32,000 nucleotides of DNA from an uncultured archaeon (GCA_964648855.1 CAZYLT010000017.1:14502-46501), one strand, 5' to 3'. Shown: positions 20,873 to 21,437, counted from the stretch's first letter. Numbers and translations are program-made. Notes: generated by a model not told the origin, from the sequence alone.

Positions 20873-20891
20873 ACCACGGAGAGTTTGAAGC

Positions 20892-21437
20892 CTGTCAGAT
20901 AGTGTTGCATACCTCTTCAAGGTCGTTTTTCTTGGAGAGGGCGGAGTTGGCAAAACTTCGCTCGTAGGTCGGTACGTGTACGACTCCTTCGAAGGAGATT
21001 ACTTGGCTACTATCGGTGCCGCCATGCATACAAAGCCAGTTCAGGTCGACGACACGCATGTGAAGCTCGTCATATGGGATATAGCAGGGCAAGATGACTT
21101 TGAGCAGTTGCGTAAGGCTTACTATCAGAACGCGTCAGGAGCCTTCTTCGTCTTTGATACAACACGCCCAGATTCCCTAGACAGGTTTGAAGAGTGGTTG
21201 GAAGCTCTCTACAGTGTGACTTCGGAGATACCAGTTGTGCTACTGGAGAATAAGGTTGACCTTGAGTCACAAATGGACTCCAATAGAGTTGAGGCCCTCT
21301 CTAAGAAATATGGATTCGAGCATATCAGAACCAGTGCGAAGGAAGACACCAACGTGGAGACCGCGTTTCTCAAAGTCACCAGTGAAATTCTGGAAAAAGC
21401 TCGATCTAAGAAGCCAGTGAAGCGGACAGCCCAATAA
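20892..21437 (+). CDS. Rab-like small GTPase 1; CTG start (ORF track calls 20976, which omits the P-loop)
   Basis: YLFKVVFLGEGGVGKTS (G1, upstream of the called start), TIG, WDIAGQ, YYQNA, NKVD and TSAK. Confidence 0.93.
   Translation: MSDSVAYLFKVVFLGEGGVGKTSLVGRYVYDSFEGDYLATIGAAMHTKPVQVDDTHVKLVIWDIAGQDDFEQLRKAYYQNASGAFFVFDTTRPDSLDRFEEWLEALYSVTSEIPVVLLENKVDLESQMDSNRVEALSKKYGFEHIRTSAKEDTNVETAFLKVTSEILEKARSKKPVKRTAQ

Follow-up and report, generated by a model that had tools for sequence, protein, structure and literature searches.

A Rab-like GTPase gene in a Thorarchaeota genome for which translation very probably starts at a conserved CTG codon

The stretch of DNA analysed, called the window below, is 32,000 nucleotides long and lies in a Thorarchaeota genome, G000, which is a metagenome-type assembly of 3.1 Mb in 62 contigs, 94.6% complete and with 4.75% contamination. 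There are 22 small-GTPase matches in the genome as a whole. In the window, two GTPase genes stand in tandem on the plus strand. The first, GTPase 1, is read here as positions 20892 to 21437, comprising 181 codons and a TAA stop. The second, GTPase 2 (21585-22106), is a paralog with 47% identity, matches Pfam Ras at 7.9e-36 and has a GTG start 9 nt after AGGGGT. The pair is found beside a divergent AP_endonuc_2 TIM-barrel gene, an arrangement which is shared across the family. Between the two GTPase genes, the spacer (21438-21584) contains a run of six T residues (about 21464-21469) soon after the TAA of GTPase 1, which may be an archaeal oligo-T terminator, so that the two paralogs may be separate transcripts.

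GTPase 1 belongs to the Ras superfamily. In the translation from 20889, residues 11-168 were matched to positions 1-161 of the 162 positions of Pfam Ras (PF00071, E=1.4e-45), and TIGR00231 (small_GTP) matched at 1.5e-24. The top PDB matches were Rab23, Rab21, Rab2/Rab2A, Rab11 and Rab8/Rab8A (E about 1e-33) and Rab7, with the solved 'Thorarchaeota Rab' 7ezb also among the best (7e-32), and the Rab-like label which had been given to the gene by an earlier, sequence-only reading is upheld by these matches. The orthologs carry the NCBI label 'Rab family GTPase', and homologs are named in their source records as Candidatus Thorarchaeota proteins. All the G motifs are intact in the translation from 20892 (GEGGVGKT, WDIAGQ, ENKVD and TSAKE). 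The protein ends in ...EKARSKKPVKRTAQ, and no C-terminal cysteine prenylation motif of the CC, CxC or CaaX type was found, there being no cysteine in the tail KARSKKPVKRTAQ. 'Rab-like' is therefore the right term, and not bona fide Rab. Compared to the Asgard and Thorarchaeota Rab-like GTPases represented by 7ezb, GTPase 1 has the same Ras-superfamily fold and G1-G5 motifs, but it lacks the cysteine prenylation motif and stands in a conserved tandem arrangement with a paralog that has diverged from it.

In the frame of GTPase 1, a TGA stop (20886-20888, +) is followed by AGC and then by CTG (20892-20894), with exactly 8 nt separating the CTG from the Shine-Dalgarno sequence GGAGAG (20878-20883). 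The frame opens with S-L-S-D-S-V-A-Y-L-F-K-V-V-F-L-G-E-G-G-V-G-K-T, and the translation reads SDSVAYLFKVVFLGEGGVGKTS. The P-loop (G1), GEGGVGKT, is encoded at 20934-20957, whereas the first ATG, GTG or TTG in frame is the GTG at 20976-20978, which opens an ORF of 153 aa (20976..21437) and lies 3' of the P-loop. From the TGA to the P-loop, just two codons in frame are near-cognate, differing from ATG by one base: CTG 20892 and AAG 20919. An out-of-frame ATG ORF of 12 codons (MTQTTESLKPVR*, 20864-20902, +), which does not belong to the gene, overlaps the CTG. The ORF listing and three-frame translation of the window thus confirmed the arrangement from which the sequence-only reading had argued, namely a P-loop upstream of the first canonical start, TGA-AGC-CTG with GGAGAG 8 nt upstream, and the short overlapping ORF, with every coordinate as it had been given.

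The public gene call for the locus (P0003, 153 aa) starts at GTG 20976, begins MYDSFEGD and has no P-loop. That call, together with the lack of any canonical start before the P-loop, would be in keeping with a pseudogene, or with a gene making only the 153-residue product, but both are very improbable indeed. Nucleotide binding is impossible for a Ras-fold protein that lacks beta-1 and the P-loop, and G1 is lost from GTPase 1 if the protein begins at GTG 20976. No Shine-Dalgarno sequence precedes that GTG, and the 28 codons in front of it, P-loop included, are among the best conserved. Within the genus the dN/dS of GTPase 1 is 0.04, with a dS of 1.39, so that the gene is under strong purifying selection; with all the G motifs intact and the same design kept in orthologs of at least 15 genera, the suggestion in the earlier reading that this might be a pseudogene was not borne out.

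The start codon was then compared among orthologs. Of the 24 genomes examined from the same family, 21 contain GTPase 1, as does one genome belonging to a second family. Twenty-two loci, including the window, were usable and were aligned with the P-loop as anchor; one family locus was excluded because its N-terminus was unreadable. The aligned start column contains 17 CTG, 4 TTG and 1 GTG, the GTG belonging to the genome from outside the family. GGAG (as GGAGnG) is found at a fixed 8 nt before this column in 21 of the 22, the other having GGTG. For three orthologs (GCA_053582745.1, GCA_048882365.1 and GCA_036478715.1) the NCBI records already start the coding sequence at the CTG. Inspection of ortholog start codons had been proposed as a check by the sequence-only reading, and a column made up of nothing but NTG codons supports initiation at CTG. 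Ten other conserved leucine columns in the same alignment each use five or six leucine codons, with an NTG fraction of 0.30, compared to 22/22 in the start column. The arrangement is beyond chance, and recurs in independent assemblies from at least 15 genera.

The degree of divergence adds weight to this. Between genera the synonymous sites are saturated (pS 0.8-1.0), which, taken with the low dN/dS, means that the CTG was retained as neutral positions became randomised. The TTG states are scattered on the tree beside CTG sisters (L018 with L014, L028 with L029), a pattern which resembles the switching of start codons and not the behaviour of a leucine codon. For GTPase 2 the orthologs start with ATG (9), GTG (8) or TTG (4), and never with CTG.

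In 9 of the 17 CTG orthologs (the window and eight more) the frame contains no canonical start in the 3-51 nt that separate the CTG from the closest stop upstream. The stop is two codons before the CTG in the window, in L013 and in L017, all three having the same TGA, and in L022 a TAG directly abuts the CTG. In the remaining eight CTG orthologs an upstream canonical codon is present in an open frame, and a longer N-terminal form could in principle be made in those genomes, but the extensions appear mostly to be translations of a promoter-like DNA motif. The same holds for public annotation. Calls of homologs (P0002-P0121) use more than 30 start positions relative to the P-loop, ranging from 54 residues before it to beyond it, and in six clusters the P-loop is missing. 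[quoted passage not shown] The conservation there is therefore at the level of DNA.

That promoter-like element, of about 15 nt and resembling GATAGTnTTAT(C/T)AGA, lies 24-39 nt upstream of the Shine-Dalgarno sequence in about 18 of 21 orthologs; apart from it, the region upstream of the Shine-Dalgarno sequence is unalignable among orthologs. In the window it is represented by GATAGTTTTATC (20842-20853, +). The loose pattern GATA[GC]TnTTAT[CT] has only four matches in the 3.1-Mb genome, and GATAGTTTTATC can for that reason be regarded as a conserved element specific to the gene. It is probably a BRE/TATA promoter and/or the binding site of a regulator, and this gene-specific site may be shared with the divergent AP_endonuc_2 gene. 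With a spacing typical of archaea, the transcript would begin near 20875, and its leader of about 15 nt would carry the Shine-Dalgarno sequence. No conserved RNA structure was found around the start, RNAalifold predicting 0 pairs over the 22 orthologs and the single-sequence z-score being -0.98.

These comparisons also bear on whether the protein starts somewhere other than the CTG. It might start at an out-of-frame canonical codon such as ATG 20864, followed by a programmed +1 frameshift, by readthrough of TGA 20886, or at AAG 20919. The ORF from ATG 20864 does run across the CTG, one frame off, to end at TAG 20900-20902, and an out-of-frame ATG is found within 60 nt upstream in five orthologs. 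However, L013, a genome of the same genus, has an identical TGA-AGC-CTG but AAG in place of ATG 20864, and no equivalent of that ATG is conserved elsewhere. The out-of-frame ATGs vary in both frame and position, L016, L023, L025 and L030 have none that is open across the start, and no slippery or shift-prone motif is conserved among the orthologs. The ATG is moreover probably upstream of the transcription start, as it lies 11 nt past the TATA-like element and the expected start near 20875 is downstream of it. A frameshift from ATG 20864 was accordingly rejected, given its absence from the same-genus genome and the four orthologs without any such ATG, and with it went the earlier suggestion that the 20864 ORF might be joined to the gene. 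Readthrough would give no conserved extension, the upstream stops being TGA, TAG or TAA at varying distances. As for AAG 20919, it has no Shine-Dalgarno sequence before it, and protein-level conservation extends over the residues from CTG to AAG (xxVAYLF). A start elsewhere, by whichever of these routes, is left with a slim chance.

An error in sequencing or assembly near 20864-20900, hiding an ordinary ATG, GTG or TTG, was a further concern of the sequence-only reading, and the nature of the assembly, in 62 contigs and with some contamination, gave it a certain plausibility. It is nevertheless so improbable as to be negligible. The same-genus genome with identical TGA AGC CTG was assembled independently, and CTG occupies the same column in sixteen other assemblies of different genera and in three further public contigs. 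Such an arrangement cannot recur by error in about 20 independent assemblies.

On this evidence we consider it very probable that positions 20892-21437 of this Thorarchaeota genome encode an intact Rab-like GTPase of 181 residues, the translation of which starts at CUG 20892. Initiation at the CTG was also what the sequence-only reading had preferred, and it is strongly supported by the NTG-only column, the conserved spacing of the Shine-Dalgarno sequence and the nine orthologs without an alternative. The most economical mechanism is the following. A short, leadered mRNA would be transcribed, probably from the GATAGTTTTATC element about 45 nt upstream. Pairing of its GGAGAG with the 3' end of 16S rRNA would bring the CUG, which follows 8 nt later, into the P site. 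The GGAGAG starts at -14, inside the peak (-14 to -11) which Shine-Dalgarno 4-mers form ahead of the earliest canonical start in long ORFs across the genome. The initiator Met-tRNA (anticodon CAU) would then read CUG with a first-position mismatch, as it does GUG and UUG, and the protein would most likely begin Met-Ser-Asp-Ser-Val-Ala-Tyr.

The initiator tRNA of the genome is in fact ordinary, having the CAU anticodon, A1:U72 and a G:C-rich anticodon stem (C4:158328-158441), and no unusual initiator was found in the genome in addition to this standard one. Both tRNA-Met(CAU) genes (C4:24703-24836 and C4:158328-158441) contain introns, and aragorn finds no tRNA-Met at all unless the search is intron-aware. 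The standard initiator bears on the identity of the first residue. Leu-tRNA decoding has been reported for some eukaryotic CUG starts, a tRNA-Leu(CAG) is present in this genome, and the sequence itself cannot separate Met from Leu at position 1, so that the start could be at CUG 20892 with an elongator Leu-tRNA(CAG) decoding it and leucine as the first residue. But relatives have TTG or GTG in the same column, and other genes of the family interchange CTG with ATG, GTG and TTG, which is how NUG codons read by a single initiator tRNA behave. We know of no Leu-initiation pathway in archaea, and consider leucine at this position highly unlikely; methionine is the expected residue.

Use of CTG starts in the genome as a whole was surveyed in G000 with ORFs of at least 150 codons, and with codons at least five codons upstream of the first canonical start. 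CTG was the codon most enriched after a Shine-Dalgarno 5-mer at -15 to -12, with 16 of 251 compared to a background of 1.8% (p=1.9e-5). The excess was specific to the spacing, the ratio being 3.5 at the correct offset and 0.4-1.3 at wrong ones, and it amounts to about 11 genes, or roughly 3% of the starts led by a Shine-Dalgarno sequence. CTC, CTA, CTT, TTA and ACG were not enriched behind Shine-Dalgarno sequences in G000 (ACG, 1/153), and ATC and ATA were weakly so (about 1.9-fold, p about 0.02). The signal needs 5-mers at the empirical offset and the exclusion of codons beside canonical starts. A first, narrow survey with the hexamer GGAGnG at spacings of 6-10 gave five matches and no excess of CTG. 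Two other genera, sampled over 1.18 Mb, gave an enrichment short of significance (3/69, p=0.13), and so did an outgroup Asgard genome sampled over 1.2 Mb (7/180, p=0.16). When 375 confident canonical starts of G000 led by Shine-Dalgarno sequences were projected on those genomes, the 53 ortholog pairs obtained included 0-1 CTG. CTG starts are real, but they are rare.

Several individual candidates in G000 are genes of recognisable identity. Behind a Shine-Dalgarno sequence at C47:5099 (L040:501), a putative CTG start opens a dihydrolipoamide-dehydrogenase-like gene, the FAD-binding GxGxxG motif of which is encoded 90 codons upstream of the first canonical start. An ABC ATPase (C1:303176, L041:501), the primase large subunit PriL (C10:12215, L042:501) and a FolE2-type GTP cyclohydrolase, identified by Pfam (C1:129652, L043:501), are further candidates, all with CTG behind a Shine-Dalgarno sequence. 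The window itself contains another at 13765 (C17:28266), where ttGGAGGagttctt CTG would be the start of a MASE3-type histidine kinase gene, with its first canonical start 43 codons downstream, and also a candidate ATC start at 5069 (C17:19570), with GGAGGtttcaaaa ATC and the first canonical start 64 codons downstream. In orthologs, the FolE2 start column consists of ATG (7), TTG (5), GTG (2) and CTG (3), directly before a conserved VVDTQNE, and that of PriL of TTG (5), CTG (4), GTG (3) and ATG (3). The dihydrolipoamide-dehydrogenase-like gene, found only within the genus and so offering a single comparison, starts with CTG in G000 and with TTG in the sister genome. Judged by these columns, CTG behaves as a fourth, infrequent NTG start in the family.

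CTG-start candidates were also observed outside the genus, the following two among them. In the outgroup Asgard genome (G036 C1:990117, +) the candidate belongs to a gene with a CoA-binding domain, resembling ADP-forming acyl-CoA synthetase; a stop lies one codon upstream of the CTG, and no canonical start occurs until 125 codons downstream. The second candidate, in a MetF-like gene, comes from a different genus of the family (G009 C1:277499, -). Taken individually, each is convincing.

The start of GTPase 1 can be set beside three known kinds of initiation. The AUU of bacterial infC is a conserved weak start in an autoregulatory loop, in which the product, IF3, itself discriminates against AUU. 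GTPase 1 shares with infC a poor start codon that is conserved over long distances while neighbours or paralogs have good ones, and such conservation in a single gene implies selection for low or regulated initiation. Its product, on the other hand, is a Rab-like GTPase, a protein not known to take part in initiation, and the likeness is limited to the conserved weak start. With the NUG starts of prokaryotes GTPase 1 has more in common. It too uses a first-position near-cognate codon at the canonical distance from a Shine-Dalgarno sequence, presumably read by the initiator Met-tRNA(CAU), with NTG codons interchanging among orthologs. The novelty is limited to that extent, as NCBI translation table 11 lists CTG as a possible start and NCBI annotates it for some of the orthologs. 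CUG is nevertheless exceptional among prokaryotic starts. A survey covering 36 prokaryotic groups recorded about 4 switches to CUG among roughly 69,000 reconstructed starts, an extreme rarity (PMC5622118), whereas here CTG is held in 17 of 21 family genomes across saturated synonymous divergence. The start codons named in a 2020 review of initiation in archaea are AUG, GUG and UUG alone, with no mention of CUG (PMC7531240), and our literature searches on archaeal CUG or CTG starts found no specific paper. In eukaryotes, lastly, CUG is the most efficient non-AUG start (PMC5666671, PMC4705826). The codon is the same, and the Asgard host has the eukaryote-type factors aIF1, aIF1A and aIF2, but eukaryotic CUG initiation needs scanning and a Kozak context, while in GTPase 1 a Shine-Dalgarno duplex at a fixed spacing of 8 nt points to the prokaryotic mode.

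A reason for keeping such a codon may be its weakness. In E. coli, CUG initiates at 1-2% of the level of AUG (10.1101/063800), and if that figure is carried over to this archaeon, CUG would be a poor start here too, and the conserved CTG would keep GTPase 1 scarce compared to GTPase 2. Across the 21 family genomes the start of GTPase 1 is CTG or TTG and never ATG or GTG, while its paralog and other genes switch freely, and the weak start has therefore probably been selected. We suggest that it probably keeps the amount of GTPase 1 low compared to that of its tandem partner. One can go further and propose that CUG is a routine fourth start in Thorarchaeia and other Asgard archaea, used by about 3% of genes led by a Shine-Dalgarno sequence, and that selection has exploited its weakness. 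GTPase 1 would then have retained CUG (or UUG) throughout the history of the family, whether because this sets its ratio to GTPase 2 low or because it lets synthesis respond to the stringency of start-codon selection (aIF1/aIF2 activity). This wider proposal is a tentative one, with a real but minor chance of being right.

For annotation the consequences are practical. Common gene finders accept only ATG, GTG and TTG and so miss a CTG start. The effect is to distort counts and alignments of the Asgard GTPases that are treated as 'eukaryotic signature' proteins, and likewise those of other genes such as PriL, FolE2 and the dihydrolipoamide-dehydrogenase-like gene. For the biology of the family, GTPase 1 provides a clean archaeal CUG start, supported by comparison of orthologs and apparently held by selection, and its 5' region offers a concrete case of how the eukaryote-like initiation machinery of an archaeon handles CUG. 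If the wider proposal is true, it would be a prokaryotic-mode forerunner of the CUG-regulated translation of eukaryotes.
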